Virus record (IMG/VR): IMGVR_UViG_3300035034_002688
Source of the DNA: an uncultured virus (IMG/VR IMGVR_UViG_3300035034_002688)
Lineage: Duplodnaviria > Heunggongvirae > Uroviricota > Caudoviricetes
Strand: one strand, 5' to 3'
Length of the DNA stretch: 64,000 bases
Of the stretch, positions 1-64,000 are shown piece by piece (within the stretch, counting starts at the first letter, position 1; the number at the start of each line of letters is the position of its first letter). Below the pieces are notes generated by a model. It had not been told where the DNA came from. It made no database searches and worked only from the letters and a program-made list of their open reading frames with translations. The position numbers and the translations under genes were made by a program.

Positions 1-311
1 GCCTGTGCGGAGATGTCTACTCCGTCCACCGTGCCCACGTTGGTGATGTCTTGACCTTCAAAGGGCAGCTCGGGCTCTTCGGGAAGAGGGTCTCCCGTGT
101 GCGCTGCGATCAAGGCATCCAAAACCAGGACTGCGGCTCCCGCCAAAGGGTTTGTGAAGATGAACGTGGCGGAACCTTCTTGAAGCTGGAAGATGCCTTG
201 AAATCCAGGCAGCGCGCTCTCCCGAAGCTCCTGGTTGAGTCGCGGTAGGTCCGGTGTGTTGTTTCCAGTAAGTCCCGTGAACGCGGACCATTGCCGTTCG
301 ATCTCAGCCAT
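1..311 (-). CDS. N-terminal part of a fibre-like virion protein, truncated by window start
   Basis: Not in the ORF track. ATG at 311-309 overlaps the upstream TAA (TAATG). Open to position 1 (MAEIERQWSAF...QDITNVGTVDGVDISAQ); the last motif recurs in the 1574-aa protein. Confidence 0.75.
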   Translation of the reverse strand, partial: MAEIERQWSAFTGLTGNNTPDLPRLNQELRESALPGFQGIFQLQEGSATFIFTNPLAGAAVLVLDALIAAHTGDPLPEEPELPFEGQDITNVGTVDGVDISAQ

Positions 312-14907: not shown

Positions 14908-15549
14908 ATGCGTGACAACGACAACAAGGTATACAAGCGGGGTACGAACCCCAACACGCGGATCGCGATCAGCCAGAAGAACAAGCTGTACTCGGTCGCG
15001 CGTGGCAACTCTGCGTTCTCCCAGGTGGGCGTCGTCTCCAGCTTCGGCTTGAGCGAGTCGCGCGCCGTGGATGAGGTTCGTGGCATGGGCTACGGTGATC
15101 AGGTTGCCGAGCTGGTCCCCGGCGTCACGGGTGCCATGAGCATCTCGATCAGCCGTACGCTGCTCTACCTCGCCAACATCTATCAGGTCATGGGCTACGC
15201 CGGTGGCATTGACGGGCTCGTCCGCTCGCTCAAGCACCACCAGTGGCCTTTCGACCTCAAGCAGGAGCTGGTGCTCAGCCGCATCGCCTCCAACTCGCAG
15301 AACAACCCCAAGCTCACCTCTCCCTCCTCGGACGGGACCAACGAGGCGCTCTTGACGTTCTTCGAGGCGTGCTGGATCGAGTCCTACTCCGCCAACTACG
15401 CCGCTGACGCTGCGATGATCTCGGAGGACGTGGGCATCAAGGCCACCGACATCATCGACGGCACCTCGACCTACGGCGAGCTTGCCTCCGATCCGGAGTC
15501 CACGGGCAACAACCCGTTCAACGAGACCGGCTCGGCTCGCTACCAGTGA
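14908..15549 (+). CDS. Putative tail tube protein
   Basis: 213 aa, GAGGAG RBS, followed by a terminator; QVGVVSSF...RAVDEVRG...ELVPG...PFDL...FEACWIESYS pattern resembles myovirus tube proteins. Confidence 0.7.
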   Translation: MRDNDNKVYKRGTNPNTRIAISQKNKLYSVARGNSAFSQVGVVSSFGLSESRAVDEVRGMGYGDQVAELVPGVTGAMSISISRTLLYLANIYQVMGYAGGIDGLVRSLKHHQWPFDLKQELVLSRIASNSQNNPKLTSPSSDGTNEALLTFFEACWIESYSANYAADAAMISEDVGIKATDIIDGTSTYGELASDPESTGNNPFNETGSARYQ

Positions 15550-22126: not shown

Positions 22127-22729
22127 ATGCCCCAGAAACTACACATCAAGATCGCCTCGGTCCCTGGACAGGAGCGTAGCCTCTTTGATCGCGTCGTCCG
22201 ACTGGCGTACACCACGCCCGAGCTGCGGCCTCAGCTCCTCCCGATGCTCAAGGATGCGGCGCGTTCGATCGGCCTCAACACGCTCAAGGATCTCCACGAG
22301 TACCGAGGCACGTTCGCGATCCTGTCGGCGTACCGTCCGATGTCGAAGTCGGACAACAAGGCACGGCACGGCGAGCTGATTCGTGATCTCCAGGTCATGG
22401 GGTACCGGAGCTGGTTCGACGCCAAGGGCTACTGGACCCACACCGAGAAGAGCGTGATGGTCCCCCGCATGACCTTTGGACACGCCGTGGAGCTTGGTCG
22501 CAAGTACAACCAGGATGCCGTGGTCTACAAGGGCAAGGACGGTCTCGTGGGGATCTATGACCTCCGCACCAACACCGTTCAGGTCGCCGGCCCGAACGTC
22601 GACATCTCCTCCGACCCTGCCGATGCCGTCACGAAGTTCCGCAACACGGGCCTCACGTACGAGTTGAGCGAAGCCCACTACCCCTTCAGCGGCCCCATGA
22701 CTCAGGACAAGCTCCGCTCTATGCAGTGA
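22127..22729 (+). CDS. DUF3293-like domain protein
   Basis: FAILSAYRP...NKARHGELIRDL...GYW..TEKSVMVP...AVELGRKYNQDAV. Confidence 0.6.
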   Translation: MPQKLHIKIASVPGQERSLFDRVVRLAYTTPELRPQLLPMLKDAARSIGLNTLKDLHEYRGTFAILSAYRPMSKSDNKARHGELIRDLQVMGYRSWFDAKGYWTHTEKSVMVPRMTFGHAVELGRKYNQDAVVYKGKDGLVGIYDLRTNTVQVAGPNVDISSDPADAVTKFRNTGLTYELSEAHYPFSGPMTQDKLRSMQ

Positions 22730-36636: not shown

Positions 36637-37283
36637 CCCCTCCCCGTGTACGCGGGGATGTCCCGTGCCTACCCTTGTCTACGAACGGGGCGCGGCCCCC
36701 CTCCCCGTGTACGCGGGGATGTCCCCCTTCGACGGTCACGACGACCATCGACACCAACCCCCTCCCCGTGTACGCGGGGATGTCCCCTACAACCTGGGCT
36801 CGGCTCGCTCCAGGCAAGCCCCCTCCCCGTGTACGCGGGGATGTCCCCACCCACATCACGACCTCGAAGGACTCGTTGGTCCCCTCCCCGTGTACGCGGG
36901 GATGTCCCCATGGCGTCTGTCATGGGCAACAGGATGGACTTCCCCTCCCCGTGTACGCGGGGATGTCCCCGGGTACGTGAGCGCCTTGGCGGAACCCTTC
37001 CCCGTGTACGCGGGGATGTTCCCCGTGTACGCGGGGATGTTCCCCATTACAGGGCGGCACACCCTAGGTTCATAACCCCTTCCCCGTACACGCGGGGATG
37101 TTCCCCAGACACCCCAGATCCACCTTGGCGTCCAGACCCCTTCCCCGTACACGCGGGGATGTTCCCCTCACACCGAACGAGCGAACGCCAATGTGCCCTT
37201 CCCCGTACACGCGGGGATGTTCCCACCATGCCTTTTTGGACATGCACTGATTGTCGCTTCCCCGTATACGCGGGGATGTTCCT
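36637..37283 (+). CRISPR. CRISPR array 1, type I-E-like, 12 repeat units and 10 spacers, no adjacent cas genes
   Basis: 29-nt repeats CCCCTCCCCGTGTACGCGGGGATGTCCCC at 36637, 36698, 36759, 36820, 36881, 36942 (61-bp period), then CCCTTCCCCGT(GT/AC)ACGCGGGGATGTTCCC at 36995, 37016 (overlapping), 37077, 37138, 37196 and degenerate 37255. Confidence 0.97.
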
Positions 37284-37670: not shown

Positions 37671-40600
37671 TCAGTCCGGATCGAGCAGGAATTCCAGCTC
37701 GTCAAGCAGGGTCGTGGTCTCCTGGAGATCGTCCTGATCCCGTGCGATGCGTGTCTGCTCCACCACATCCAGACCCGTAGCACGTTCGATCTTCTGCGTC
37801 AGGCTGACGCCTCCGATGGCGGAGAGGTCCTCGTCCTTCTCCAGACGTACGGCGACCACCTCCGGATCTTGAGCGGCGACTTGCCCCAGAGCGGTGGAGA
37901 GATCACGTCTCGCGCGGTCCAGCTTCAGGCGGGTATCTTCGGTCGCAGTGCGCGCCTCCGTGCCGAGCACCGATCCTAGCGTCTCTCCTGCGTCCAGGCG
38001 GCGGCGAATGTCCTCACGCCCAAAGATGCCTGTGTTTGCTCGACCCACCGGCTCCAGGTTCACCGTGTCGAGACCTCCAATGACGGGATTGGGAGGGGAG
38101 GTCGCGGGCGGGGTACGGTTCTCACCGCGTAGCTCGCGCTCTCGAATCGCACCCTGTTGGACGTCTCGCTCGTAGAGGTTGAGGAGGAAGCGGTTGAGCG
38201 CGTCGATGATCCCCGGATCACGGGGAGGGGTCAGGCCTTCCGGTAGCGTATTGACTCCGTTCTGGGCGTTGTCGTCGAGAGCTTCCGCGAAGCGGTTCAC
38301 TGAATCCTGCTCGTCTTCAATGACGTCCGGGAGCCCAACCGTGTTGACGCGGTTGGAGGCTTCAAGATCATTCGCCTCGTCACCTTGAAGAATGGCGGCC
38401 TCCGTGACCATGGGCTGCTCGGGCGTGACCACCATGCCGTCAGGTATCGGGAGCAAGGACTCAGCCCAGATCCCGCGCGCGGTCTCCTCATCTCCGATGT
38501 ACCCGTCAAGGTTCCAGGGCTTCTTGTTGGGCTTGTACTGTCGGGGGTACTCGGCTTGCCACTGGGCGATCTCGGCTGCGCTGGGGTTGGTCGCCAGGAA
38601 GCGGTTGTAGAGCGTCAGGCTTCCAGGACCTGCCTTCCAGAGGATGGCGATCTTGGTGGGATCGTTGCCGTGTCGGCCTTTGTACTTTTCGGCGTAGCGT
38701 AGGAAGTGCTCCAGGCTCTGGTCTGGCGCGTTCATGAAGTCGACGTTGGAGGTGTTGGTGCCGTCCCTCTTGTTGAACTCCTTCGCGTTGGTCTTGCCGA
38801 TCTGAACCAACCCGACAAACTGCGAGGGCTTCCCGTTCTTCTGCGTCCGTCTCGCATCGGCCTTACCCGAAGACTCGGTGTGGATGATCGCGAGCACCAA
38901 CTCATCGGGATAGGTCGCTTCGGAGTAGCCCAGCTTTTCGCGCGCCGCGCGGATGTTGGGGCGCCAACGGGCCACGTTCGAGTTGTACTTGAAGACGCGA
39001 CCTCGCGACGACTTTCTCACCGTCTTGTTGTTGACCGTGTACGAGTCCGAAGAGAGTGGGCTGGGCGCAGCGGTCGCCGGCACGGAGGAGGAAGCCCCCT
39101 GTGCGTTGGAGAACTGGAGCTGGGCGGAGAGCACGCGCGCGGCGAGCGTGGGGTCGGCCGAGATGTTGGGAGGTGCAAGCTCTGCGAGTCGTCGCCCGTA
39201 GTTGTTGGGGTCCAGCTTGAGCGCCTTGCCTCCCAGGTCTGCCTCATAGGCCGTGGCGAGGTTGTCGGAGATCTCATTTTCGGCGTTGGGCGTCGTCCTC
39301 CCTGGCTGCCCCAGGTCGTCGGGTGCGAGGTTGAGGAGCAGCTCCACGGCCGTGTTCAAGGGCGTCTGGTCAAAGCGGTAGCCTTGAGGGGTCGCCAGGA
39401 CACGGCGCCCGTACTCATAGGCTCCGATCACCTCATAGCCTCGCTCATCCGAGACCGGGAACACCACCGCGTTGACCGTGGCGGTCTCGGTGGTTCCTTC
39501 TGAGGTGGCCGTGATCTGTAGCTTGGGGTCGGACTCGATGTGAGTCACCGGACCTCGTGAGCGGTTGTTGGCCTCATCGGAGACGTAAGGGGTCTCCCGG
39601 TTCGGGTCAATGAGGTAGACGTAGCGGTTGTCTGTCGTGTTGCCAAACTGTGATCGCAGGTCGACCAAGTTACGCAGGCGGCGGTCCGAGTCAGTGGAGT
39701 CGTCCTCAAACGTGGGCACCACGTCACCGAACCTCTTGAAGTCCTTTTCGGGGAGGTAGGTCATCACCACGTTGCGGTCACCCAGGGGCCGCCCGTTGGG
39801 GTCTGTGGGTCGGGCCCCGATGTTTCTCGGGATGTCACCGGGGAGCGCCAGATCACCGGGCTTGGGCTCGGCCGCCTCGTCACGCCACCGCTCAAAGGCC
39901 CCGTAGAACTTCTGTCTGCGCGCGGAGAGGGTCAGGGACGTGGTACAGCGTGATCCATACCCGAAGCTGTGTGAGATGCCCTCCACGTAGTAGTACGCGT
40001 CCTTGCCCTCCACATAGACCGGGTACCCCAGGCGAAGCTCGGGTCGAAACGGGATCGTGACCGTGCCGCTGTTGATGCGCGCGTTCTGCTGATCCAGGAT
40101 GTCGACGAGGTGGTAGAAGAGCGCCTTGGGCCCTCCGTTCTCCTTGGACCCAATGAACTCGGAGCTGAACGCTCCTGGACGCCATCCGTACTTCTGGACG
40201 AGCCTGTAGTCGACGTACGTAGCCTTGGTCTGTGCCAGGGAGGAGAGCCCGACCTCGACGTTCTGTGTGTAGCGTCCCGTGGCCTCCACGAAGGTCGCTT
40301 CCGGAGGGTTCTCCGAAAAGTTCCAGGAGATCACGTCAACGTCTCGAATCCAACTCACGGGGAAATTCAGCCGGGTGTCCATGTTGAAGAACGGAGGCTT
40401 GAAGATGATCTCCCCCGTGACGTCCATGTAGAACTCGTAGTTGATCGCCTCCTTGGTCTGCAAGGCGAGGTTGAGCTTGTTCTCGAACTCACTGTTCTCG
40501 ATCTCTACCGCACCGAGCTGACTCAGCTTCTGGCTGAAGGGGGCGATGGCGCTCACGTCGAAGAAGTCCTGCTTGAAGGGCTCGTAGTCCTTGAGCTTGG

Positions 40601-41399
40601 TAGCCTTGGCGGACCCCTTGCGCTGGCGAAGGAAGAAGTCTCGGTTCTCGCCCGAGAGCACGCTCGCGAGCTGGCCACCCTGGAGGACGTTCCCGGAGGG
40701 GCCATACATCTTGATGTTCTGCGTGATCCGACCCCACTTGGCGCTCCAGTAGGCCATCATCCTCTTGGTGTCCGCTCCCGAGATCGGCTCGGTACGGGCT
40801 TCGCGGTTTGGGACCGACTGATTACGCACGTTCATCGAGTCCCCATACACGTAGCGTGAGAGGCTGTAGATGATGTCGAAGGCGTTCATGCCCGTGAACG
40901 TGTGTCCTCGCAGGTTGACCTGTTGGGTCTGGTCCTTCAAGGTCGCCAGATACGACGGGTTGATGTTGATCTGCGAGACCTGCCACCAGTACAGGATGTC
41001 CGAACAGCTCAAGCTGACCGTCTGCTCGCCGGCCGAGTAGCTCTCCTGCAAGCTCGTGACGACGCCCCAGAAGATCGGGTAGTACCGTGGCGATCCGCCC
41101 ACCGAGAAGTGACCCTTGGCGTAGATCTGGACCTCCATCATCGTGGTCAACGTGAGCTGACCCCCCACATAGATGTCACCCAGGTAATGTGCCGGGATGT
41201 GCAGGTCAATGGAGGCGCTGCCGGGCACCGAGTTGACCCCCAGGTTGACCGAGATCGTGTTGATCAACGGCTGCAAAGGCACGCGTCGGTTCGGGTTGGC
41301 TCCGCTTGGGAGGCTCAGCTCTCCGTTGATGTAGACCAGACAGTCTGGCGCCGTGGTGACGACGGGGCGGCGGTTTGGCTTGTAGGTCCCTTGGTACAC
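37671..41399 (-). CDS. Baseplate hub-like protein with SLT lytic transglycosylase domain (1242 aa)
   Basis: N-half gp27/GPD-like (PIFWGVV, YEFYMD..GEIIFKPPF, VTIPFRPELRLGYPV...YYYVEGISHSF); SLT motifs LAIIHTESSG, GLVQI, WKAGPG. Confidence 0.8.
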   Translation of the reverse strand: MYQGTYKPNRRPVVTTAPDCLVYINGELSLPSGANPNRRVPLQPLINTISVNLGVNSVPGSASIDLHIPAHYLGDIYVGGQLTLTTMMEVQIYAKGHFSVGGSPRYYPIFWGVVTSLQESYSAGEQTVSLSCSDILYWWQVSQININPSYLATLKDQTQQVNLRGHTFTGMNAFDIIYSLSRYVYGDSMNVRNQSVPNREARTEPISGADTKRMMAYWSAKWGRITQNIKMYGPSGNVLQGGQLASVLSGENRDFFLRQRKGSAKATKLKDYEPFKQDFFDVSAIAPFSQKLSQLGAVEIENSEFENKLNLALQTKEAINYEFYMDVTGEIIFKPPFFNMDTRLNFPVSWIRDVDVISWNFSENPPEATFVEATGRYTQNVEVGLSSLAQTKATYVDYRLVQKYGWRPGAFSSEFIGSKENGGPKALFYHLVDILDQQNARINSGTVTIPFRPELRLGYPVYVEGKDAYYYVEGISHSFGYGSRCTTSLTLSARRQKFYGAFERWRDEAAEPKPGDLALPGDIPRNIGARPTDPNGRPLGDRNVVMTYLPEKDFKRFGDVVPTFEDDSTDSDRRLRNLVDLRSQFGNTTDNRYVYLIDPNRETPYVSDEANNRSRGPVTHIESDPKLQITATSEGTTETATVNAVVFPVSDERGYEVIGAYEYGRRVLATPQGYRFDQTPLNTAVELLLNLAPDDLGQPGRTTPNAENEISDNLATAYEADLGGKALKLDPNNYGRRLAELAPPNISADPTLAARVLSAQLQFSNAQGASSSVPATAAPSPLSSDSYTVNNKTVRKSSRGRVFKYNSNVARWRPNIRAAREKLGYSEATYPDELVLAIIHTESSGKADARRTQKNGKPSQFVGLVQIGKTNAKEFNKRDGTNTSNVDFMNAPDQSLEHFLRYAEKYKGRHGNDPTKIAILWKAGPGSLTLYNRFLATNPSAAEIAQWQAEYPRQYKPNKKPWNLDGYIGDEETARGIWAESLLPIPDGMVVTPEQPMVTEAAILQGDEANDLEASNRVNTVGLPDVIEDEQDSVNRFAEALDDNAQNGVNTLPEGLTPPRDPGIIDALNRFLLNLYERDVQQGAIRERELRGENRTPPATSPPNPVIGGLDTVNLEPVGRANTGIFGREDIRRRLDAGETLGSVLGTEARTATEDTRLKLDRARRDLSTALGQVAAQDPEVVAVRLEKDEDLSAIGGVSLTQKIERATGLDVVEQTRIARDQDDLQETTTLLDELEFLLDPD

Positions 41400-41457
41400 G
41401 CAGCACTCCTTGACGTGGGGTCCTTCACCCTGCGCACAAAAAGGTTAGGCATGGCGC

Positions 41458-41487
41458 TTGACACTCACGTTGCAGTTGCAGTATACC
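41458..41487 (+). promoter_or_regulatory. Sigma70-like promoter upstream of the duplicated CRISPR leader
   Basis: TTGACA-N18-TATACC. Confidence 0.55.
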
Positions 41488-41508
41488 TTGAGACGTCAAG
41501 TGGGCGCG

Positions 41509-41647
41509 GTACCACAGAGTAAGAGTTGGTAAAGTAAAACGGCGAACCTCATGCTAACAGGATTCCCCTTATGAATCAAGGAGTTAGGTACACTTCCGAA
41601 GGCTTGAACATTTGAAGAGTGTTCCCCGCGCGAGCGGGGAAGTTCCT
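41509..41647 (+). CRISPR. Duplicated array-2 leader plus a solitary type I-E repeat
   Basis: 41583-41630 is identical over 48 nt to the reverse complement of the array-2 leader/repeat junction; 41526-41542 is identical to revcomp 62482-62498; single repeat GTGTTCCCCGCGCGAGCGGGGAAGTTCCT at 41619-41647; IHF consensus match AATCAAGGAGTTA at 41574-41586. Confidence 0.9.
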
Positions 41648-41687
41648 ACCTTCTACTACGACCACACCTTCTGTGGGGGATGAGACC

Positions 41688-41885
41688 ATGAAGATCAAGA
41701 CACGGATTCAGCGAGACGACAAGCCCACGGTCATCATCCGAATCGTCCGCACGGAAGATGGGACGGTCACGTGGCAGAGCAAGATAGCACGCACGGGTCG
41801 AATCATCGGCACCGGTACGTGCGATACGGTCGAAGATGCGCTCCTGGAATCGTCCAAGGGGATGTTCGAGGTCCCTGATTCATGA
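41688..41885 (+). CDS. Small hypothetical protein (65 aa) after the solitary repeat
   Basis: GGGGGA RBS, ATG 41688; ATGA-coupled to next gene. Confidence 0.6.
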   Translation: MKIKTRIQRDDKPTVIIRIVRTEDGTVTWQSKIARTGRIIGTGTCDTVEDALLESSKGMFEVPDS

Positions 41886-42760
41886 GCTACTACAAGACCA
41901 AAGGTCGCTGCACGCTCCAGGTACAGAAGCACGGCGGCGTGTGGATGGCCGAGGTCGACGTCTCTCAGGAGCATGGTCCGATGGCCGAGCTGTGCTGTGC
42001 TCCGGCGACGTCCTACACTCAGGCCGTCAAGATGGCCCACGCGGTGGAGAAGCAAGTAGAGGAGGGCTCACTCTTGCGCCTCCCCGAACAGGCGATTGAA
42101 GAGCACTACACCTCTTATCCCAAGCTGTACTATACGCGGTGGTGCGCCCTCTCTTGGATTCTGGGCTATTACGGTATGGATTGGCTCGACGGACAGAAGG
42201 TCTCAACCTGCGACCTTCACCCGGACGGGACGCAAGCGCTGGACCTCTACTCCGAAATCTCTGACGAGCTGGAGGGTCTTGAGCGGCGGGCCTTCGCGCC
42301 GTTGAAACACGATGAGCCTCTTGAAGACTATCTCTCCAGGTACTACAAGGAGGAACAGTTTCAAGCCTATAAGGCCGAGTCCAAGGCGTTCTTTGAGCGG
42401 CCTTACCCCCTCGATGATACCGGCTACGCGGTTCATGACGCACATCTGCGAGACCTCGAAGTCCCTGACAACATCCACCCCAAGTGGTTGGAAGCCGTCC
42501 GTGAGCTGCTCATCATCTGCGGCACGAGGTGCACGGAGACCTCGGCTCGGCTGTGGGCCGACGAACAGGGCAAGACACTCGAAGCTCGTTTCCCTACACG
42601 CTTCGAGCCCTTGAACCTGGACATGACCTCTCACCCCACTCGGCCCGTGTTTTCGAGCTTCAGCTTGACGCAGAGGAGCGCGGAGAAGACGGCGAAGCTC
42701 TTGACCGCCAAAGAGCGTGAGCGTCTCCTTTGTGCCTATCCCAAGAGGTTCTCAGTATGA
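41882..42760 (+). CDS. Hypothetical protein (292 aa)
   Basis: Long ORF coupled on both sides. Confidence 0.7.
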   Translation: MSYYKTKGRCTLQVQKHGGVWMAEVDVSQEHGPMAELCCAPATSYTQAVKMAHAVEKQVEEGSLLRLPEQAIEEHYTSYPKLYYTRWCALSWILGYYGMDWLDGQKVSTCDLHPDGTQALDLYSEISDELEGLERRAFAPLKHDEPLEDYLSRYYKEEQFQAYKAESKAFFERPYPLDDTGYAVHDAHLRDLEVPDNIHPKWLEAVRELLIICGTRCTETSARLWADEQGKTLEARFPTRFEPLNLDMTSHPTRPVFSSFSLTQRSAEKTAKLLTAKERERLLCAYPKRFSV

Positions 42761-43017
42761 ACGAGTTGACCTACCTTAGAAGCGTTCTTGGAATCCTGGG
42801 AGCCTTTATGGCGGCCATGTTCTTCACGAGCTTCCTGATGTTGGCCTTGCCGGCTGAAGAGGACCTGACGGGGTGGCACTTTGTGTTCTACTTCTTCTCC
42901 TGGACCTGCATCTTCATTGCGCGTGGTGCACGGGGAGTGGTCCTGTCACATCTGGTCGAGCTGGAAGCGGCCATGAAAGACCAGGGCGTCGATGCACCGG
43001 AAGACCTCGTGATGTGA
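42757..43017 (+). CDS. Small membrane protein with two TM segments
   Basis: ATGA overlap; two hydrophobic stretches. Confidence 0.6.
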   Translation: MNELTYLRSVLGILGAFMAAMFFTSFLMLALPAEEDLTGWHFVFYFFSWTCIFIARGARGVVLSHLVELEAAMKDQGVDAPEDLVM

Positions 43018-49801: not shown

Positions 49802-52800
49802 ATGACAGGCGACTTCAACGGCTGGGTGCTTCGTAAGCCACGGGTAGCAGCTTCCAACGCCAACACCACCGCTGAACCTGATGTCGTCGTGCGCGAGCAG
49901 GATGAGGCCGCGTATCGCGCCTCCTACCTCGACAACGTGAGCGCTACGGGGTCGGAGTACCTCGTCCGTACTGCACAGACCGGTGACCTCGTGGTCCCCT
50001 CGTCGATCACCGAGATTGCGAGCCCCTTTGATGGCTCCTTGCCGACCGCGCTCGTCTTCACGTTCAACACGCAGGGTCGCGCCGTCGCTGCGCCCGTGCT
50101 CCCCGCAGATGTGACGCCCCTTCCGGACAGCGTGGACACGTCTGCCGGCCTGATCACCTATCTGGTCGCCCCTGGTGTGGCACCCACCGTCACCTTTGTA
50201 CCTGCACCCCTGTCTGTCGAGTACACCCGCAACGACTCGGGGCGTACGCGCTTTGGATACGATGCGCGCGTGTCCCGTTGGGAGACCCTCCCCGGAGGCT
50301 CACCCGAGTCCCTCGGTCTGGTGCCTGAAACCGGCCTCCTCACGCTCCCTCTCGTTGAAGCTGATGCAGCGGGCGCGCCGGCCCCTCCTCGCGTCCTGCT
50401 TGGCAATCCGGACCGTCTGTTGGGGACCCTCGTGGACGTCACACAGCTCCTGGGTGAAGACGCGTTCGCGGATTACCGTGATGGCATCCTTGACCCTGCG
50501 TCTGGAGAAGGGGCGCTGAACGTGGAGACGGGGGAGCTTCGACTCGCCCCGTCCTTGACGGTAGGATTCGAGGCTCAGGAGGCCTTCTTTACCCGGCGCA
50601 ACTTCTTCGCCTTTGATGCGTCAACGGGACGCGTCGGGATCATCGGAGAGGACCTCCTCTTGAACCCGTTGCCCCTGGTCGGAGAGGAGCCCCTGCTTCG
50701 CGTAGGGTACGGCTCGTATCTAAACGCGTCCGTAGGGGCGGGCTCTCCGGTGGGCAGCGAGCAGGCACGTGTTGATCCGCTCACGGGTCGAGTCAACTTG
50801 AGCGCGGCTCTTGAGGCTCAATCAGAGGGCTTAGCTCTCTACTACGATGGGGTTCTTACGGGGACCGCGACGCCTCAGGCTCCTACAGTGCTCGGAGACC
50901 TCCTCTCCAACCAATCGGGCCTCTCCAATGTGGACCTCCTGGAGTACGAGCCGGAGGCGCTGGTGCTCTATATCGAACAGACCGGGGAGGCGGTGCGCGA
51001 GCTGGAGTTCGTGGCCGACCCGTCGGACTTCACTGAGGCGCGCAACCTCCCTCCCACGAAGGCGCAGGTCGCCCGGTCAGATGGGTCCGTTCGCTTGAGC
51101 CAGCGTTTCGTTTCGGCCAACCTCTCGCGTGATCTTGTGGCGGGCTCCACGGACCTCACGCTCGAACGTGGGCTGACGTTTCGGATGGGCCGATCACCCC
51201 TTGACCCAACCAACGCAGCCGGGCTCCCGGACGGCCAAGGCGTCTTGCGCCTGGAAGATGAGCTGCTGGGCCCCGTTCGCAGTGGGCCTTCCGCGTTCCT
51301 GACTCAGGTGCCCCTGGTCGACGTCGCAGGTTATGCGGCAGACACCTTTTACCGTCTGGGGAGCGGGGCCCAACGGCGCGTACTCGTCCCGGATGAGGAG
51401 GTGATCTATGATTTTGATACCCGTCAGCTCCTGTGGGCCCAGCGTCGTACCACCTCACAGACGATCTCTCAGCGCACGTTCTCCGTACGCGTCCCGGATC
51501 AGGTCCTGCTCAACCGTAACTACAGCTTCGAGCTGAACCGGGGCAGCGGCTTTGAGGCCCTGGAGGATGGCGTCAACGCCTCCGTGGACTTCGACATTGG
51601 GGAGATCCGCTTCACCCAGACGCAGGGTGAGGTTCTGATTGAAGACGTCGCGACCGTGGCGGGACAGGAGTTCACGTTCTTGACCGAGGACCTCTCCGGG
51701 GTCGTCATTTCGCTGGTGGACCTTGACCGGCCCCTGCTTCGTACAGGCCTGAACGCCTACACGATCACGGGCATCGCGGGTAGCGTGGTGACCGTGGAGG
51801 GGGACGTCCAGGAGAGCGGCTCCGTCGCTGTCGAGATCATCTCCGCGCCCGAGCCCGTGTACGCGTACGCGCTCGCGCAGGTGAACCTCAACCCGGACAT
51901 CGTGGCGGCGTTCCTGGTCCGCGAGGTGGACAGCTCCGGGACCGTCTACGCTCCGGGGACCACAGGAGAGGTCTATGCGGTCTCGGGCGGAGTCCGTCGT
52001 GATGTCGTACGGCTCGCCTCAACCGTTCTCGGAGAGGCACAGGATGCCTTGACGCTTCCTGCGTTTGCACAGGGGGCCGAGGCTGTCTTTGAGATCTACC
52101 TTGGGAGTGATCTCCTGGTAGAGGTCGGCGGGACGCCCAACCAGGGTGAGTACCGCATCATGGGCGTGGACTTGGTGCTCTCCTCGGCGGACGTGCTGGC
52201 CAACCCCAAAGAGCTGGTTACGCTGGACCCGAGCCTGAGCACGGCGCGCGCGACCGGGGACGTGGAGCTGCTGGTCGCTACCCGCGAGCTGGGGTTCCCT
52301 CTTGACCTCGCAGTCGTAGACCTCTACGTACAGGTCGAGGCGCGTATCCAGGACCGCCTCCTCTACTTCTCCCAGCCTTTCGCTGCGGGAGATCGCCTGA
52401 GGGCGCGCTACCGTACCGCTGATGAGGTTGAGGTGGAGGAAGAGGTAGGCTTTCGCGTCGTGGAGGATGCCGTGATCGTGAGCGCGACCGAGGCGACCTA
52501 CGGGGCTGGACGCCTCCTCGACCCGAACCGCGCTCCTATCATACTCGTCAATGGAGCACGCACAGACCTCCCGGTAGATCCGGTGGCGGGCACCATCAAC
52601 ACCAGCTCGGTTCGTACGGGGCGCACGATCAGCGTGAGCTACGCCGCACTCGATGCCAAGGGTGGGGAACAGACCGCGAGCCTTCTCCAGACGCCCGTGT
52701 CTCCTGATGTGGTGTTCGCTCCTGGGACCAGCCAGACCTTGCGCGGTGATCAGACCGACGACCTCTTCCTGGGTGCGTTTGTCCAGGCGGGCTCAACGAG

Positions 52801-55800
52801 CTTCACCGTGGCGAGCGTGCCGACCTATGATGGAACGCAAACCACCTTCGAGGTCGAGCCTTCGCTCCCTCAAGAGGTACGCAATCCGATCACTCTTGTC
52901 AGCGGGACGGTGTTTGACTTCGAGGTACTCCCCACGCTTGCCTTTGATGCCCCCGTGCAGGGCTCGACAACCTTGCGCGTCTTCTCAGACGTGACAGGCC
53001 TCCTCAAGGCGCAGCGGGTGCTCGTGCTCGACTCGGACGCTTACTACGTCACCGACGTCACCTTCGACGGTGGCCAGACTGTCCTCTCCTTGGCGAGCCC
53101 GCTCGCGCGCGCATACAGCTCTCCCCTGGCGTCTCAGTCCGTGTTTACGGTGTATGGCCCCGGTGCTCAGGTCCTGTTGACCGAGAAGACGGGACTCGAC
53201 GGAGGCCTCGTTGAGGTGATCCGCCGCGCCGCAAATGGAGACCTTACGGTAGTAGATCCCTCGACCTACCTGTTTGAGCCTGCGGGTCGTCTCACTCTGG
53301 ACCCTACCCTGACGGCTCCGCTGTCTCGGGGAGAGGTGGTCTTCTTGCGGTACACCGCGCTCGATCCGGTAGGCCCCACGACTCTTGGGGGACAGCTCTT
53401 CTTGCCTCGCTTCCGTGGGACCTACACGCAACGGGTCAACGCCTCCGAGACCAATGGCTACCTGGGGTCGAACCTGTACGTGAGCGCGACCTTGCGCGCG
53501 CCTGACACCTTCTACTTTCGCGTCCTCCCTCTCGCGGAATGGTCCGAGGAGGTCGCTCAAGGCTTGACGACCTCTTCAGGCACGGGCCCCGTGGTCTCTT
53601 CGTTCGCGACGACGCCCCTGTCAGATCAAGGTATCCAGACCCTGGTTGGGGAAGGGGGAGACCTCTACGATACCGACCGCGCCGCGCGTCGCTACCTTTC
53701 GTTCTACAATGACCTCGTGACCGCCTTCGAGAACGTCCAGGAGGTCCTGGATGGTCGAGTGATCGGAGACCGTGACGGCAAGTTCCGCTTCACCGTCCGT
53801 GCAGACTCGACCCCTGGAGGTGAGGACCCGATCACGGGACGCCTGCTTCCCTACTACATCAACCCGGCCAACCCTGGAGTGCGTCCGACGAGCGTTCAGA
53901 TCGGGGACACGGGAGACCTGACCTTGCAGACCGGGCTCGTCCAGAACAACCTCGACGACATCCTGCTCACCTCCAAGCGCCCCTTCTCCCTGAACATCCT
54001 CGGGTTCACGATCGACTACACAGGCACGTTCAAGCGTGCCTGGGAGCCCTCACGCCTCTCGCGTCTCTACCCCGAAGAGTCCACGGTCCAGACGATCACG
54101 GTGCCCCCTCTTGGCGGAGGCGGCAGCTACACGTTTGGAGACGATGGCGGGCAGATCCTGGCAGACTCGGGCGTCACGGGGGTCCTGGCGATCAAGGGTA
54201 TCCGTCCGCGCGGGTCCGCCGCCACGGTTACGAAGGTGACGCCCGGAGATCCGCTCGTGCTGTCTTGCGCGCAGACCTATGACCCGATCACAGGCGACCT
54301 CTCCAACGCTCCCTATGACCTCACCACAGGTGACCCCTCGCGCGCGCGCCCGCCGTTTGAAGTAGGTAGCCGGGTCGACATAGGCCGGGTCGTCTTTAGC
54401 CGAAACGGTGAGGATGTCACGAGGACCGAGGTGCTCGTGGCTCGGGACTTGGTGGTCGACTCGGTGACCGCTTCAACTCTTGAGCTGGTCGAGGGTGCAG
54501 GCACGGCAATCGGTTCGGTAAATACACGAGCGGGAGATACGGTGTACGAGGCTACGCCTCTGGACCTCCCCGGAGTCGCAGACTTGGCATCGCTCGACCC
54601 GGCCGACATGCCCTTCTACCGCAACCCACTGGACGTGACCCTGGACGGAGCGACTGGAGAAGTCATTAACCCGACCCTACCCGGATTCTTTGCGACCTTG
54701 CTCGGTCAGAAGGTGCCTCCTCCCGGCACTCTGCTCGATCTGACCGTGAGCTACCAGAATACGAACACGTCTCCTCGTCGTCCTCCCGCTCTTGATGGAG
54801 GTGCGGCCAATGACGATGGGGACCTCAGCGTCCCGTTCGTCTCTCCAATGCCGGACTCGGAGCTGTCTCGTCTGCCTGCCGAGCTGGCTGCGATCACGAC
54901 GCTACTCTCCAACACGGAGCCCGGCGTCTACGTGTCCGCGGCGACGCGTCTCTCGGCCACGACCCTCTCGACGTCTCTGGACCTCACTGGCCTTGGAGTG
55001 GGAGTCCAGGGGTTCACCCTCCTTGAAGGTTCTCCTGTGGTCTACTCCTCTTCGGAGGTGCCGGGACCCAACGTCTTGACCCTGGCAGCGTTTGAGTATG
55101 AGGACCTGACGGCTCCCTTTGAGGTGCCTGACCTCTTCGCGGGTTCTGGTACCGTAGCGGGCGCGGTCCTTACCGACGCGGGCACGGACTTCACCGCGTT
55201 CTCGGGAGCGACGATCACCCTCAATATTGACGGCGGAGCCTCTTACCCGGTGAGCGTGCTCTCCAACGGGTCTCTTACGGCTACGGGCGTGATCGCGGAG
55301 ACGGGCGCGCAAAGCTACACGTTGAGTGCGAGCGGGGTAGGCTCCATCTCCACGGACTTGACCACTCTGGAGGCTCCTGGAGTTGACTTCACCTCGGCGT
55401 CCGGGCCCTTCACCGTCGCACGTCCGTTCAATGGCGGCCTCTCTCCCATCACCTTCCTCGTGGGAGAGGGCTCAGACGGATCTCTCGTGCCAGACCTCAT
55501 CCCTTCAGGCTTCAACGGACCGTTGGCAGTGGGTCCACTGGTGCCGGTAGCCTCAGGGACCGCTCAGGTGTCTGTCACAAACGTGCTCAGTACCCTGGAC
55601 TCCCTGGCATCTGTGGCTCCAGGAGACACGCTCATCATTGCCTCTTCGTCTCCCAACGCTGGCCGCTACCGGGTGGGTGCAGTAGGCGCGACGACGTTGA
55701 CCCTGGATGTGGGAGCGGACGCGAGCATCTGGAACACCTTCTTCTGGGACAATGAGGGCGGAGGCATCACTTACCCTGTGGACTACACGGTCGTGCGTCC

Positions 55801-56635
55801 TCGCCGCTACAGCGTGGAGATGGAAGACTACCGCGAGGAGCTGGCACGTCAGCGGGTGATCTATGAGGACAACGCCAACGCGCCGGCTGACATCATTGGC
55901 TTCCTCACGGCGACGTCTTCCAACCCCGCCACGCCCTTGAAAGAGCGGCTGGACGCTCTTGACGCCCTCCTGTTGCCGGCTCCTTTCCTTACGCTTACCG
56001 GCGTGGCGGAGACGGGCGCGCAGACCTTGACCGGTGGCGTGGACTTCGTGGTGGAGGGGGTGGAGACGGGAGACCTCGTGCGCGTGGACGCGGGTATCAA
56101 TCGAGGCTTCTACTTCGTCACTGGAGTCTCCAGCGCAGCGATCACCCTGGACGGCTCGAACCCTTACGTCACCTACACGCTGAGCAACGACGGCGCTACG
56201 GACTACACGGTCACCAAGGCGGAGGGGTTCCAGGACCTCACGTACCAGCTCGTGCTCTCGGAGATCTACGGACTTGACCAACGCATCGAGCGTCTGGACG
56301 CGGGTATCCGAGGGGTCGACACGGACACGGACGACCTTCTGGGAGTGCTTCCGTACGGTAGCCTGACAGGAGACTACACCGACGACACCCTCACGGCCCA
56401 CCAGACGCAAGCTCAGGCGAGGTTGGACCGTCTACAGGTGGTTCCCACGCTTGCTCAGGACATCGAAGGCATCTTGAAGGGGTCTGAGGCCCTGTATGAT
56501 ACGCGGTATGCCTGGGTAGACTATCGCGCGAACCTTGAAACAGGTACCCTGCCAAGAATCCGTCGATACCTTGCTACGGTAGACAAAGAGAAGGAGCGAC
56601 GCTTGAGGGAACTCACTCGCGCCGGTTCAACTTGA
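49802..56635 (+). CDS. Very large virion structural protein, probably baseplate wedge-like (2277 aa)
   Basis: Uninterrupted 6.8-kb ORF; beta-rich acidic composition; within the baseplate region. Confidence 0.65.
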   Translation: MTGDFNGWVLRKPRVAASNANTTAEPDVVVREQDEAAYRASYLDNVSATGSEYLVRTAQTGDLVVPSSITEIASPFDGSLPTALVFTFNTQGRAVAAPVLPADVTPLPDSVDTSAGLITYLVAPGVAPTVTFVPAPLSVEYTRNDSGRTRFGYDARVSRWETLPGGSPESLGLVPETGLLTLPLVEADAAGAPAPPRVLLGNPDRLLGTLVDVTQLLGEDAFADYRDGILDPASGEGALNVETGELRLAPSLTVGFEAQEAFFTRRNFFAFDASTGRVGIIGEDLLLNPLPLVGEEPLLRVGYGSYLNASVGAGSPVGSEQARVDPLTGRVNLSAALEAQSEGLALYYDGVLTGTATPQAPTVLGDLLSNQSGLSNVDLLEYEPEALVLYIEQTGEAVRELEFVADPSDFTEARNLPPTKAQVARSDGSVRLSQRFVSANLSRDLVAGSTDLTLERGLTFRMGRSPLDPTNAAGLPDGQGVLRLEDELLGPVRSGPSAFLTQVPLVDVAGYAADTFYRLGSGAQRRVLVPDEEVIYDFDTRQLLWAQRRTTSQTISQRTFSVRVPDQVLLNRNYSFELNRGSGFEALEDGVNASVDFDIGEIRFTQTQGEVLIEDVATVAGQEFTFLTEDLSGVVISLVDLDRPLLRTGLNAYTITGIAGSVVTVEGDVQESGSVAVEIISAPEPVYAYALAQVNLNPDIVAAFLVREVDSSGTVYAPGTTGEVYAVSGGVRRDVVRLASTVLGEAQDALTLPAFAQGAEAVFEIYLGSDLLVEVGGTPNQGEYRIMGVDLVLSSADVLANPKELVTLDPSLSTARATGDVELLVATRELGFPLDLAVVDLYVQVEARIQDRLLYFSQPFAAGDRLRARYRTADEVEVEEEVGFRVVEDAVIVSATEATYGAGRLLDPNRAPIILVNGARTDLPVDPVAGTINTSSVRTGRTISVSYAALDAKGGEQTASLLQTPVSPDVVFAPGTSQTLRGDQTDDLFLGAFVQAGSTSFTVASVPTYDGTQTTFEVEPSLPQEVRNPITLVSGTVFDFEVLPTLAFDAPVQGSTTLRVFSDVTGLLKAQRVLVLDSDAYYVTDVTFDGGQTVLSLASPLARAYSSPLASQSVFTVYGPGAQVLLTEKTGLDGGLVEVIRRAANGDLTVVDPSTYLFEPAGRLTLDPTLTAPLSRGEVVFLRYTALDPVGPTTLGGQLFLPRFRGTYTQRVNASETNGYLGSNLYVSATLRAPDTFYFRVLPLAEWSEEVAQGLTTSSGTGPVVSSFATTPLSDQGIQTLVGEGGDLYDTDRAARRYLSFYNDLVTAFENVQEVLDGRVIGDRDGKFRFTVRADSTPGGEDPITGRLLPYYINPANPGVRPTSVQIGDTGDLTLQTGLVQNNLDDILLTSKRPFSLNILGFTIDYTGTFKRAWEPSRLSRLYPEESTVQTITVPPLGGGGSYTFGDDGGQILADSGVTGVLAIKGIRPRGSAATVTKVTPGDPLVLSCAQTYDPITGDLSNAPYDLTTGDPSRARPPFEVGSRVDIGRVVFSRNGEDVTRTEVLVARDLVVDSVTASTLELVEGAGTAIGSVNTRAGDTVYEATPLDLPGVADLASLDPADMPFYRNPLDVTLDGATGEVINPTLPGFFATLLGQKVPPPGTLLDLTVSYQNTNTSPRRPPALDGGAANDDGDLSVPFVSPMPDSELSRLPAELAAITTLLSNTEPGVYVSAATRLSATTLSTSLDLTGLGVGVQGFTLLEGSPVVYSSSEVPGPNVLTLAAFEYEDLTAPFEVPDLFAGSGTVAGAVLTDAGTDFTAFSGATITLNIDGGASYPVSVLSNGSLTATGVIAETGAQSYTLSASGVGSISTDLTTLEAPGVDFTSASGPFTVARPFNGGLSPITFLVGEGSDGSLVPDLIPSGFNGPLAVGPLVPVASGTAQVSVTNVLSTLDSLASVAPGDTLIIASSSPNAGRYRVGAVGATTLTLDVGADASIWNTFFWDNEGGGITYPVDYTVVRPRRYSVEMEDYREELARQRVIYEDNANAPADIIGFLTATSSNPATPLKERLDALDALLLPAPFLTLTGVAETGAQTLTGGVDFVVEGVETGDLVRVDAGINRGFYFVTGVSSAAITLDGSNPYVTYTLSNDGATDYTVTKAEGFQDLTYQLVLSEIYGLDQRIERLDAGIRGVDTDTDDLLGVLPYGSLTGDYTDDTLTAHQTQAQARLDRLQVVPTLAQDIEGILKGSEALYDTRYAWVDYRANLETGTLPRIRRYLATVDKEKERRLRELTRAGST

Positions 56636-61949: not shown

Positions 61950-62405
61950 TGGGACATCCCCGCGTGCGCGGGGAACACGCTCCCCTTCGATACAGAGATC
62001 TTCTTTCTACCGGGACATCCCCGCGCACGCGGGGAACACGGGTAGAACAAGAAGATGTATGAGAGGGGATCCGGGACATCCCCGCGCACGCGGGGAACAC
62101 CGGACGAGCATGGGGAGACGTATTCGCCCTACCGGGACATCCCCGCGCACGCGGGGAACACTTGAAGCTGGAAGGATGCACGAGATGTGCGTGCGGGACA
62201 TCCCCGCGCACGCGGGGAACACACAGGTGTGATCACAAGAGCATGTCGCCTCATCGGGACATCCCCGCGCACGCGGGGAACACGTCAAAGCTGGTCACCT
62301 TTGGAGCGTGAACGGCGGGACATCCCCGCGCACGCGGGGAACACCATGACACCGACACACCCGCACTTGGTGCATCCGGGACATCCCCGCGCACGCGGGG
62401 AACAC
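61950..62405 (-). CRISPR. CRISPR array 2, type I-E, 8 repeats and 7 spacers of 32 nt
   Basis: Repeat GTGTTCCCCGCGTGCGCGGGGATGTCCCG (minus strand) at plus-strand starts 61950 (variant, terminal), 62011, 62072, 62133, 62194, 62255, 62316, 62377; exact 61-bp period. Confidence 0.98.
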
Positions 62406-62515
62406 TCTTCAAATGTTCAAGCCTTCGGAAGTGTACCTAACCCCCTGTATTCGCTCAGGAATTCTGTTGGCATGGGGTACACCGTTTTACTTTACCAAAT
62501 CGTACCCTGCGGTAC
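62406..62515 (-). promoter_or_regulatory. Leader of CRISPR array 2
   Basis: AT-richer non-coding stretch between the cas gene stop and the first repeat; homologous to 41509-41618. Confidence 0.85.
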
Positions 62516-62524
62516 AAGCCTGAA

Positions 62525-64000
62525 TCAGGAGGCCTTCTTGGTGGGGGCGCGGTAGTAGGTGCGCGTCCACTCCATCTGCGTCTGAGAGCCCCAGGTGAGG
62601 AGGCTCAGGATGAGGTCGTTGGCGTCGGCACCCTGACCCTCAATGCGTCCGAGGACGTTGCGGAGCTGGCGCCAGTGGCCGTTCAAGGTGCCTCCCGAAC
62701 ACAGGCGCTCGAACGAGCGCTCCTTGATGTCACGAGACTGCGCGAGGACGCGCGCGACGGGGCGGTTGCCCTTGAAGCCGGTGGGCTTGAGGCCCGCGAG
62801 CAGGACCGCCAGGAGGAACACGCGCTCCTGCAACTCGGGGGCGTTCTCACCAAGGTTACGCTCCACCACCTTCTCCAGGGCCTTCTCCAGCAGGATGGCG
62901 GGGCGCATGTAGCGTACGTCCTGGAGGTTCTTGGCGCGAGAGAGCGCGACGCGGCCGGAGCCCTTGTCGTGGTGGAGGTTGCGCCACCACTTGTGGACCA
63001 CGGAGAGGATCTCATCCTTGTGGGCGTATACGATGTTGTTCATGGGGTTCTTCTCTCTCTTGGTGGAGGTGCCGCAGAGTTTGAGGAGCTGCTTTTCGAG
63101 CCCGGCTCGTTCCCTCACGGCGGATGTGATGGTGCGGGTGTTCATGCGCGATTTGCGAGTGACACGGCCTCCAACGAGGGAGTCGAAGATCGTGAGCGCG
63201 GTGGTCGCGAGGAGGCGCTTGTAGGGCGTATAGACCATCTCCTCAAGCTCCTCCCGGTTGGTCGTGAGCTTGACCTTGGCGAGCGCGTCGTATGCAGCCT
63301 GTTCGGTGTGTGACCACAGCTCGGAGTTGTTCCGGCCTCCCAGGCAGGCGACCTTCGCGCGGAGCACCTTATCCACCTCGGACGTGAGCTTGACCAGCGC
63401 CCCGAAGGTGTCCTCATCACGCAGAGCCTGTGAGCCCTCGAAGATGAAGATGTACTTCTCGAAGAAGCTCACCGTCTTGCCCGCAAACATGTTGAATCCG
63501 AAGACACGCAGCGGGGGAAGCCCTCCCCATACCTCATCCCAATGCTCCGCGACCTCATCGTACAGGAAGGCCTTGCGCTTGGTGTGGGTGATGATTGGGG
63601 GCGTGTGGAGGGTCTCGGAGTAGGCGTGGGAACCCAGAACGTTCCACGTGCGCCTGTTGGTGACGGTCTGCACAGCGCGGACATCTTTCACATCTTTGGG
63701 GGTCCACTTGCCGTTGACGCCCATCGTCTTGAGGTTCTTGAGGGTGGTGGCGTTGTTGGGGAGCTGCCAGACACCCGACATGGGGATGCACTGACGAGAC
63801 CCCGGCAGACCTTCCCACTTCTCGGACTGCGCTGTGTAGCGCTGCCGGTTGCCCCAGGGCTGCGCATCCACGTAGTCCAGGAGCCCGTCCTCATCCGGCT
63901 CCGGCAGGACCCACTCACGCGTGAGGTGCCAGAACGCGGTCAAGGGGTGGTAGTCCAGGTCGTGAGCGCGCCACCCCTCGATCTGACTCTCTTCGACCCA
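62525..64000 (-). CDS. Cas8e (Cse1)-Cas11 (Cse2) fusion protein, 5' end beyond the window
   Basis: Frame is open to 64000. Cse1-like motifs HPLTAFWHLTREWVL, LRVFGFNM..K, LWSHTEQAAYDAL, ALTIFD. Last 172 aa are Cse2-like (WWRNL...GRVALSRA...SFERL...QLRNVL...LLTWG...EWTRTYY). Adjacent to a I-E array. Confidence 0.8.
   Translation of the reverse strand, partial: WVEESQIEGWRAHDLDYHPLTAFWHLTREWVLPEPDEDGLLDYVDAQPWGNRQRYTAQSEKWEGLPGSRQCIPMSGVWQLPNNATTLKNLKTMGVNGKWTPKDVKDVRAVQTVTNRRTWNVLGSHAYSETLHTPPIITHTKRKAFLYDEVAEHWDEVWGGLPPLRVFGFNMFAGKTVSFFEKYIFIFEGSQALRDEDTFGALVKLTSEVDKVLRAKVACLGGRNNSELWSHTEQAAYDALAKVKLTTNREELEEMVYTPYKRLLATTALTIFDSLVGGRVTRKSRMNTRTITSAVRERAGLEKQLLKLCGTSTKREKNPMNNIVYAHKDEILSVVHKWWRNLHHDKGSGRVALSRAKNLQDVRYMRPAILLEKALEKVVERNLGENAPELQERVFLLAVLLAGLKPTGFKGNRPVARVLAQSRDIKERSFERLCSGGTLNGHWRQLRNVLGRIEGQGADANDLILSLLTWGSQTQMEWTRTYYRAPTKKAS

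Follow-up and report, generated by a model that had tools for sequence, protein, structure and literature searches.

A CRISPR leader copy with one solitary type I-E repeat in a huge lake-water phage

Layout of the element

The stretch of DNA analysed here, referred to below as the window, is a 64,000-nucleotide record of an uncultured virus of the class Caudoviricetes (IMG/VR IMGVR_UViG_3300035034_002688). Between positions 41509 and 41647 it carries a copy of a leader of the clustered and regularly interspaced short palindromic repeats known as CRISPR, followed by one repeat. The element consists of a 110-nt leader paralogue of the type-A family (41509..41618, plus strand), homologous to the leader of array 2 in the window and to that of a mini-array elsewhere in the genome, and of a solitary type I-E repeat (GTGTTCCCCGCGCGAGCGGGGAAGTTCCT; 41619..41647, plus strand) with a hairpin stem-loop at 41624–41639. 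The repeat directly abuts the leader, as in a type I-E CRISPR locus. The element is housed in a divergent intergenic region of 288 nt, between the gene for a 1242-residue virion-type protein with an SLT lysozyme domain (37671..41399, minus strand) and a 65-residue open reading frame (ORF; 41688..41885, plus strand) with a GGGGGA ribosome-binding site. The 65-residue ORF, which starts 40 nt after the repeat, has no family match at E values up to 10, and its stop codon is overlapped by an ORF of 292 residues (41882..42760, plus strand). No terminator-like site is called between the solitary repeat and the 65-residue ORF.

The element belongs to a huge phage from lake water with a genome of at least 366 kb. 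IMG/VR record G001 (125,429 b) matches window positions 13868–64000 at 99.986% identity, with seven mismatches in 50,133 nt, and extends for another 75 kb; a window-equivalent coordinate is the G001 coordinate plus 13867. A metagenome contig of 365,960 b from the Joint Genome Institute (JGI) contains three type-A leader copies, two of them spaced as in the window, and the third lies in a stretch of 5,023 nt that IMG/VR record G002 (127,707 b) matches at 100% identity. Since this contig bears both the window-spaced leader copies and the G002 stretch, G001 and G002 are parts of one genome of at least the stated size, of which we examined 267 kb. The element locus is identical letter for letter in the window, G001 and the JGI contig, three assemblies that may share one sample and whose independence is not assured. 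In sequencing run X1, a single unbranched Logan contig spans 41611–42800 at a depth of 16.7, compared with 16.2 for the flanks. Logan contigs of four runs were used, of which X1 alone covers the whole stretch and X2–X4 cover small parts; neither these contigs nor the three assemblies contain an expanded form of the element locus.

Window positions 41509–41646 align with the leader and first repeat of array 2 (62515–62378, opposite strand) at 85.0% identity over 140 columns (E 7.5e-33), with identical blocks of 48 nt (41583–41630) and 17 nt (41526–41542). An earlier note on this DNA, made from the letters alone, had described about 110 bp of homology to the array-2 leader in opposite orientation with blocks of these two lengths, and the alignment confirms it. 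The identity to the leader of the G002 mini-array is about 90%, and the 36 nt that precede the repeat (41583–41618) are invariant across all three type-A leader copies. Nucleotides 1–22 of the solitary repeat are the same as in the mini-array repeat and the final 7 nt differ at three positions. Relative to array 2, the 3′ end reads AAGTTCCT in place of ATGTCCCG. The hairpin CCCCGC-GCGA-GCGGGG is intact and is present in the predicted fold, so that the combination of an intact CCCCGC/GCGGGG stem with an altered 3′ end, likewise claimed earlier, is seen in both fold and sequence. The mini-array repeat shares the GCGA loop, and the seemingly altered loop of the solitary repeat is thus a regular variant in this genome. 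No special structure was found in the leader RNA (z = 0.17 against shuffles).

The count of exactly one repeat also stands. A search of 41648–42000 for a second copy gave no match better than 15 of 29 positions of the 29-nt repeat, which is within the background of 13–18 obtained for 166 control windows. A pattern of the 19-nt repeat core has 43 matches in the window (0.40 expected), and the only ones outside arrays 1 and 2 are the solitary site and a match with three mismatches at 9082. The two or more repeats with a spacer that a type I-E array requires were not seen at the element, whether within 350 nt of sequence, in any of the three assemblies or among the Logan contigs. Rfam at gathering thresholds gives no match anywhere in the window, arrays included, and a blastn search with 41000–43000 gives none in 50,697 phage records. 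The 32 nt that follow the solitary repeat have no match longer than 12 nt within the 267 kb. In a fixed register, 13 of 20 positions downstream of the solitary repeat agree with the mini-array spacer, the best value among 45 comparators; homology past the repeat into that spacer is unproven, as the local alignment is matched by 2391 of 5000 shuffles.

A promoter-like site of the form TTGACA-18 nt-TATACC (41459..41488, plus strand; TTGACA at 41459–41464 and TATACC at 41483–41488) was read from the sequence and stands 160 nt upstream of the solitary repeat. A strict sigma-70 scan of 41200–42000 returns no site; it misses this one because the −10 element lacks the final T. The layout TTGAC(A/G)-17/18-T(T)A.. 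recurs upstream of eight of the nine leader modules for which upstream sequence was read, array 2 being the exception. The promoter of its own that the earlier note had given the element is thus present as a pair of boxes but is not called by the scan, and we treat it as a plausible reading of 41459–41488. The same note had pointed to a perfect consensus for integration host factor (IHF) that is degenerate in the array-2 leader. A match to the E. coli-type consensus (AATCAAGGAGTTA), with the letters WATCARNNNNTTR, does lie at 41574..41586 on the plus strand, 33–45 nt upstream of the repeat. The window contains two matches to this consensus where 0.75 are expected, and 21 of 100 shuffles give two or more. 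The motif is absent from the other two type-A leaders, which have GAATAC at the corresponding place, and the type-B leaders carry GAATAC at a similar distance from the repeat. The IHF site is therefore not conserved among the spacer-bearing leaders, the consensus occurring in the solitary copy alone. Judged from the alignment of the copies, the match is derived and belongs to the leader copy that has diverged most. Its absence from both spacer-carrying type-A leaders argues against the role as a functional integration signal that had been attached to it.

The CRISPR–Cas loci of the phage

A complete type I-E interference module of the phage's own (Cas3e, Cas7e, Cas6e, Cas5e and a Cas8e–Cas11e fusion) lies directly upstream of array 2. 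It was read from G001 and occupies window-equivalent positions 62525–70481 (L005:8658-16614), of which the window itself covers 62525–64000; the operon begins about 21 kb from the element. All five genes are on the minus strand: Cas3e (67851–70481; PADLOC 3e-140), Cas7e (66357–67703; 9e-59), Cas6e (65549–66280; Pfam PF08798 4e-22), Cas5e (64774–65520; 4e-42) and the 735-residue fusion (62525–64732), which matches the Cas8e model over residues 4–488 (7.3e-21) and the Cas11e model over residues 597–728 (1e-8). The real start of Cas6e is the ATG at 66280, with a GGAG site. Residues 36–236 of Cas6e align with residues 9–198 of E. coli CasE, and His47 falls at the position of CasE His20, which we take to be catalytic. 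The final 1.5 kb of the window (62525–64000) is the 3′ part of the cas8e-cas11e gene and has no Pfam match by itself. The gene order cas3, cas7e, cas6e, cas5e, cas8e-cas11e, with array 2 directly after it, is unusual, and the stop codon of the fusion gene sits 4 nt from the array-2 leader. The premise of the earlier note, a phage without cas genes that faces the I-E system of its host, is not borne out, as the module is encoded just past the end of the window. Within the 267 kb examined, neither Cas1 nor Cas2 was found in 239 ORFs (49 + 62 + 128) or in six-frame family searches of G001 and G002. CRISPR arrays of huge phages are described as small and without Cas1 and Cas2 (PMC7162821); the combination of effector genes and small arrays without an adaptation module is, on that account, a known kind of huge phage.

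Within the 267 kb, 55 repeats match the general I-E pattern, and there are two further, degenerate terminal repeats. The repeats are of type A (GTGTT...ATGTCCCG), type B (CCC(C/T)T...ATGT(C/T)CCC) or type C (stem CCCCACG/CGTGGGG); the leaders form two families, and the arrays of the phage are eight in number with 2–12 repeats each. Array 2 (61950..62405, minus strand), which adjoins the cas operon, has eight repeats (GTGTTCCCCGCGTGCGCGGGGATGTCCCG) and seven spacers. Its leader, the reference copy (62406..62520, minus strand), abuts the cas8e-cas11e stop codon and has no TTGACA box of its own. The type-A mini-array of two repeats (GTGTTCCCCGCGCGAGCGGGGATGTCCCG) and one spacer lies 195 kb from the element on the minus strand (G002 71709–71797; L020:11709-11797). 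The type-A leader thus occurs three times, with eight repeats in array 2, two in the mini-array and one in the element. Array 1 (36637..37283, plus strand) has 12 repeats of a second type, and its terminal repeat, ending ...ATGTTCCT, stops 53 nt before an ATG with an AAGGAG site. This array is a composite (36942–37044), with six repeats of one variant followed by six with variant sequences; the junction contains a 24-nt spacer and two repeat copies merely 21 nt apart, and looks like a scar of recombination between arrays.

The spacer of the mini-array (CCCTTGACGCCGCCCACTCCACGCACTGTATA) itself resembles one of the promoters of this phage (CTTGACG ... TATAGT, running into the next repeat), and no perfect match to it within the 267 kb exceeds 13 nt. 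When 46 spacers and pseudo-spacers were compared with the rest of the 267 kb, no match extended beyond 18 nt, and no self-targeting is therefore seen in that sequence. A Logan contig of run X1 contains a further locus of type A, with one spacer and at least two repeats, at a depth of 17.4 compared with 16.2–16.7 for this phage. The repeat of this locus has one difference from the solitary repeat over the 33 nt aligned, and the contig does not extend into the element locus. Its spacer would encode V-I-I-C-D-E-A-H-Y-L, the DEAH box of a helicase, and has no exact match in the viral_contigs collection.

A stem-loop scan of the 267 kb outside the arrays returned four solitary sites and otherwise only the two degenerate terminal repeats. 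Besides the element, a type-B leader with exactly one intact repeat (…ATGTTCCG) lies in G002 (15179–15347, minus strand; L017), about 66 nt upstream of a same-strand ORF of 182 residues with a GGAGG site, which looks like a membrane protein. A solitary repeat (71667–71695) stands directly upstream of the array-3 leader, and a degenerate type-B repeat hairpin (CCCTTTCCCCGCTCACGCGGGGGTCCCC) lies, in sense orientation, in the 76-nt spacer between cas7e and cas6e (66281–66356, L005:12414-12489, minus strand). In that spacer the repeat hairpin is followed by a second GC hairpin with a run of T, and the arrangement could be a Cas6e site or an attenuator in the cas operon. An unrelated, smaller IMG/VR contig of 30,707 b has a lone intergenic I-E repeat (GTGTTCCCCGCGCGAGCGGGGATGAGCCC; L030:1501-1529, minus strand), a typical solitary repeat unit and a candidate for an RNA anti-CRISPR (Racr); it shows no homology to the leaders, and the 3 kb examined contain no other repeat.

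The rest of the genome has the character of a huge phage. G002 encodes Lon, GyrB, a sigma factor, RecA and ribonucleotide reductase. The 49 window ORFs that were chosen for analysis gave few Pfam or PHROGs matches, and those are phage-like: tail fibre and virion proteins, the SLT domain of the 1242-residue protein, a thioredoxin and a protein resembling DprA/SLOG. Inside a tail-fibre-like ORF of 1574 residues (311–5035, minus strand) there is a 441-nt tandem repeat at 3229–4276 (2.4 copies, 79% matches). An ORF of 200 residues at 22127–22729 has weak matches to DUF3293 and to the S-adenosylmethionine lyase family and may be an anti-restriction lyase of this kind, and an ORF of 2277 residues at 49802–56635 has no Pfam or PHROGs match. 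In G001, a DnaB-like helicase gene is split by an intein with a LAGLIDADG homing-endonuclease domain (L007:7714-10656). Searches of viral_contigs for relatives with the 292-residue protein and with the phage Cas7e matched this phage alone in each case, and two leader patterns found matches there only in G001 (two sites) and in G002.

Origin of the element and rival explanations

The three type-A leader–repeat copies align over 139 columns, of which 112 are identical in all and 27 are variable. Seventeen of the variable columns are specific to the solitary copy, seven to array 2 and two to the mini-array, and one is different in all three; the 17 specific changes place the solitary copy on the longest branch. 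Eleven of the 17 are located within a block of 16 nt (41567–41582), and it is this block that creates the IHF consensus. At the 3′ end of the repeat, the last base is T or A in four of eight terminal repeats and in the solitary repeat, compared with none of 44 first or internal repeats, and two terminal repeats end GTTCCT, the same as the solitary repeat. By these letters, the altered 3′ end of the solitary repeat matches the terminal-repeat pattern. It may be the outcome either of recombination between a first and a last repeat or of relaxed selection on a 5′-handle segment that is no longer used.

Our preferred reading, held with modest confidence, is that the element is a guide-less one-repeat member of the phage's own I-E loci, emptied or never filled, with no dedicated function. 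It is favoured by the terminal-repeat letters at its 3′ end, by its place on the longest branch, by the presence of a full I-E operon next to array 2, by the known small size of huge-phage arrays without Cas1 and Cas2, by the identity of repeat nt 1–22 and the preceding 36 nt with the mini-array 195 kb away, and by the graded series of type-A leaders with eight, two and one repeats, alongside which a type-B leader also stands with one repeat. Arrays in this genome are normally situated just upstream of same-strand genes, so that an array that has been emptied leaves the layout leader, repeat, 40 nt, gene. The earlier note had offered a Racr-like decoy, an acquisition site or a collapsed array; the last of these is favoured, and the others have no specific support here. 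A type-A leader–repeat cassette would have lost its spacers by recombination between repeats, or would never have gained any. Transcription would run from the TTGACA/TATACC site, with a start near 41495, straight into the downstream ORFs, and the Cas6e of the phage would bind the intact hairpin and cut at its 3′ base (41639/41640), a position that we assume by analogy with the E. coli and T. thermophilus Cas6e enzymes. Cleavage would yield a 5′-OH mRNA for the downstream genes and, ahead of it, a leader RNA of about 145 nt that terminates with the hairpin. No guide or CRISPR RNA (crRNA) would be expected from the element because there is no second repeat to define its 3′ end. An effect on immunity would at most be a by-product, in that a little Cas6e is titrated, much as the leader fragment of any array would do. 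The element would thus work most like the leader-proximal end of any I-E array.

Several points weigh against a relic without function. Despite 17 changes in 139 columns on the solitary branch, 58 nt (41583–41640) are unchanged with respect to the mini-array. By an arithmetic estimate, the chance of such a run is about 6e-4 for independent changes and about 0.05 when the cluster of 11 is counted as one event. Such a run suggests purifying selection or gene conversion, so that the element may be something other than a neutral relic; the 58 unchanged nt would look no different if the three copies had undergone gene conversion with one another. An IHF match at this spot, a plausible distance from the repeat, is unlikely by chance, with about 0.001 expected per 110-nt leader from the background of the window, a figure calculated post hoc. 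Transcription of the element and its cleavage by Cas6e are steps that we infer. The search for Cas1 and Cas2 skipped ten ORFs that cross locus borders and ORFs shorter than 90 residues, and in a control the Cas2 model PF09707 detected only one of 14 control genomes.

The same features could be put to use as a Racr, in which an abundant promoter–leader–hairpin transcript would bind Cas6e, with Cas7e along its 5′ part, and form dead-end subcomplexes; the target would be the type I-E system of the host, of a rival phage or, as a form of dosage control, of the phage itself. In Camara-Wilpert et al. (2023; PMC10651486), candidates are viral solitary repeats with a promoter within 250 bp upstream, and two type I-E Racrs were shown to be functional. 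The architecture of the element fits this selection, its hairpin is intact while the 8-nt handle part, dispensable for a Racr, has drifted, and the genome has four solitary repeats in 267 kb. However, the published solitary repeats are described there as 'not associated with cas genes', whereas here an I-E operon lies about 21 kb away, and the solitary repeat is of the phage's own type in a phage with its own Cascade and Cas6e. As repeat nt 1–22 match one of its own arrays, the system of the phage itself would be the first to feel any decoy effect on Cas6e. Conservation of the leader is not required of a Racr, and yet all three copies agree in the 36 nt that precede the repeat; with no terminator after the repeat the RNA of the element is not that of a discrete small-RNA gene. 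No acr-like neighbour was recognised near the element, and no host array with this repeat was found among 185,579 species genomes, which gave one isolated E. coli match. We consider a Racr-like role unlikely. A crRNA-like regulatory mini-array (CreR, CreA or Cracr) was rejected, as there is no second repeat to flank a pseudo-spacer. A maintained empty landing pad, in which the intact leader–repeat junction would serve a compatible Cas1–Cas2 of the host or a co-infecting element, perhaps with IHF, and would give rise to a new array under a separate promoter, is a more doubtful proposal. For adaptation in S. thermophilus, one repeat behind a leader is enough, and the same holds for E. coli type I-E according to work cited in that paper (PMC4330368). 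In the present family, other leaders have taken up differing spacers, and both the invariant 36 nt with repeat nt 1–22 and the IHF consensus 33–45 nt upstream of the repeat would suit such a pad. Set against this are the lack of Cas1 and Cas2 in 267 kb, the absence of the IHF motif from both spacer-holding copies, the absence of an expanded form of the locus from the three assemblies and the Logan contigs of four runs (with X1 alone complete), and the status of this leader as the most diverged copy.

A regulatory role for the repeat would place the element in the 5′ untranslated region (UTR) of the downstream operon, where cleavage by Cas6e, or loading of Cas6e or a Cascade-like complex on the 5′ end, would set the stability or translation of the message and couple it to Cas levels. 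The 40 nt between repeat and ATG, in which no promoter or terminator is called, would agree with this, as would the type-B one-repeat unit about 66 nt upstream of a same-strand ORF with GGAGG in G002 and the sense-oriented degenerate hairpin in the 76-nt cas7e-cas6e spacer. However, full arrays of this phage also lie just upstream of same-strand genes, so that the position is what a collapsed array leaves, and we know of no natural precedent for a Cas6e-dependent 5′ UTR site. We rate this explanation, like the landing pad, as having a rather small probability. The same low estimate applies to the wider proposal that the solitary repeats are deliberate Cas6e sites in the phage's own transcripts, by which mRNAs and the cas operon would be processed or tuned; these sites would be at the heads of two operons (window 41619 and G002 15207), before an array leader (71695) and between cas7e and cas6e. 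The neighbouring 292-residue protein raises a further alternative, an attP-like arrangement in which the repeat and the nearby IHF site would be the crossover site of a recombinase, opening CRISPR arrays to integration or exchange. Lambda-type phages typically have IHF sites in their attP arms, and an Atlas feature search places the 292-residue protein nearest to tyrosine-recombinase clusters with scores of 0.92–0.93; its matches, however, share only 104–121 of 256 features, a range rated as mostly chance or very distant. The protein has no Pfam match at E values up to 10, and its sole PDB match (E 0.19) is an unrelated methyltransferase. A search of 5.8 billion proteins returned only the protein itself, and an exhaustive search added two weak relatives (E 2e-5 and 6.5e-4) that have no Pfam family either; the three-member alignment has no conserved R..HxxR..Y pattern, and the AlphaFold model is unusable (mean predicted local distance difference test score 47). 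With these results the assignment as a tyrosine recombinase is unsupported. A precedent is found in the Streptococcus phage PhiAP1.1, whose attP has 8 bp identical to a CRISPR repeat and which can pick up repeat–spacer units on excision (bioRxiv 10.1101/2020.10.09.333658), but we regard an attP-like origin as very improbable. An assembly artefact, in which the assembler collapsed a multi-spacer array, was named in the earlier note as a result that would speak against the element, and it is the least credible of the explanations. Short-read assemblies can be mis-joined at repeats, and the Logan contigs do break at the shared 48-nt block; on the other side, no multi-spacer form was found, the AAGTTCCT variant is unique and its X1 contig continues from 41611 to the downstream gene without a branch and with the same depth as its flanks (16.7 against 16.2), and the three assemblies agree letter for letter.

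Relation to known systems and meaning for phage arrays

A one-repeat member of the phage's own loci can be set beside several published systems. Huge-phage systems without an adaptation module (Al-Shayeb et al., 2020; PMC7162821) are alike in their compact arrays (2–12 repeats here) and effector genes and in that no Cas1 or Cas2 was found. They are unlike the present case in that leader-plus-single-repeat loci are not described in the excerpts of that paper; the gene order of the present type I-E variant is cas3-cas7-cas6e-cas5-cas8e::cas11e. The loci of Wei et al. (2015; PMC4330368) and of the E. coli I-E work cited there likewise have a leader, one repeat and no spacer, and the engineered forms acquire spacers. 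Those loci were engineered in bacteria with Cas1–Cas2, whereas the element is natural, resides in a phage without detected Cas1–Cas2, and its repeat has drifted at the 3′ end while its leader has diverged distally. In common with a Racr (PMC10651486), the element is a single intergenic viral repeat with a promoter-like site upstream and an intact hairpin; RacrIE1 and RacrIE2 were shown to inhibit interference, and the element is known here from its sequence. Unlike a Racr, it has a full 110-nt leader paralogue, belongs to a phage with its own Cas6e, Cascade and Cas3 and eight arrays, and runs into protein genes without a terminator. PhiAP1.1 (bioRxiv 10.1101/2020.10.09.333658) also has a repeat-like phage sequence and shows one route by which repeat–spacer units are gained or lost; in place of an 8-bp core, the homology of the element covers a whole leader, and no integrase has been demonstrated beside it. 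We found no description in the literature of a natural leader-plus-one-repeat locus in a cas-bearing phage, in a search that was not designed to prove absence.

If the element is indeed an emptied or never-filled locus, it would represent one stage in the turnover of phage-borne arrays, with the same leader seen with eight, two and one repeats in one genome. It would be useful, if not surprising, in tracing the birth, copying and emptying of arrays in phages without Cas1–Cas2. It also calls for caution in surveys for Racrs, as a promoter-proximal solitary viral repeat can belong to the virus's own CRISPR–Cas system and a 64-kb window can hide cas genes just past its end. Were the solitary repeats of this phage deliberate Cas6e sites, a CRISPR endoribonuclease would be serving gene regulation in nature. 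The finding would carry greater weight if the invariant leader–repeat junction is under selection, as one-repeat loci would then seem to have a use in huge phages that has gone unrecognised, whether as RNA or as a site of acquisition.

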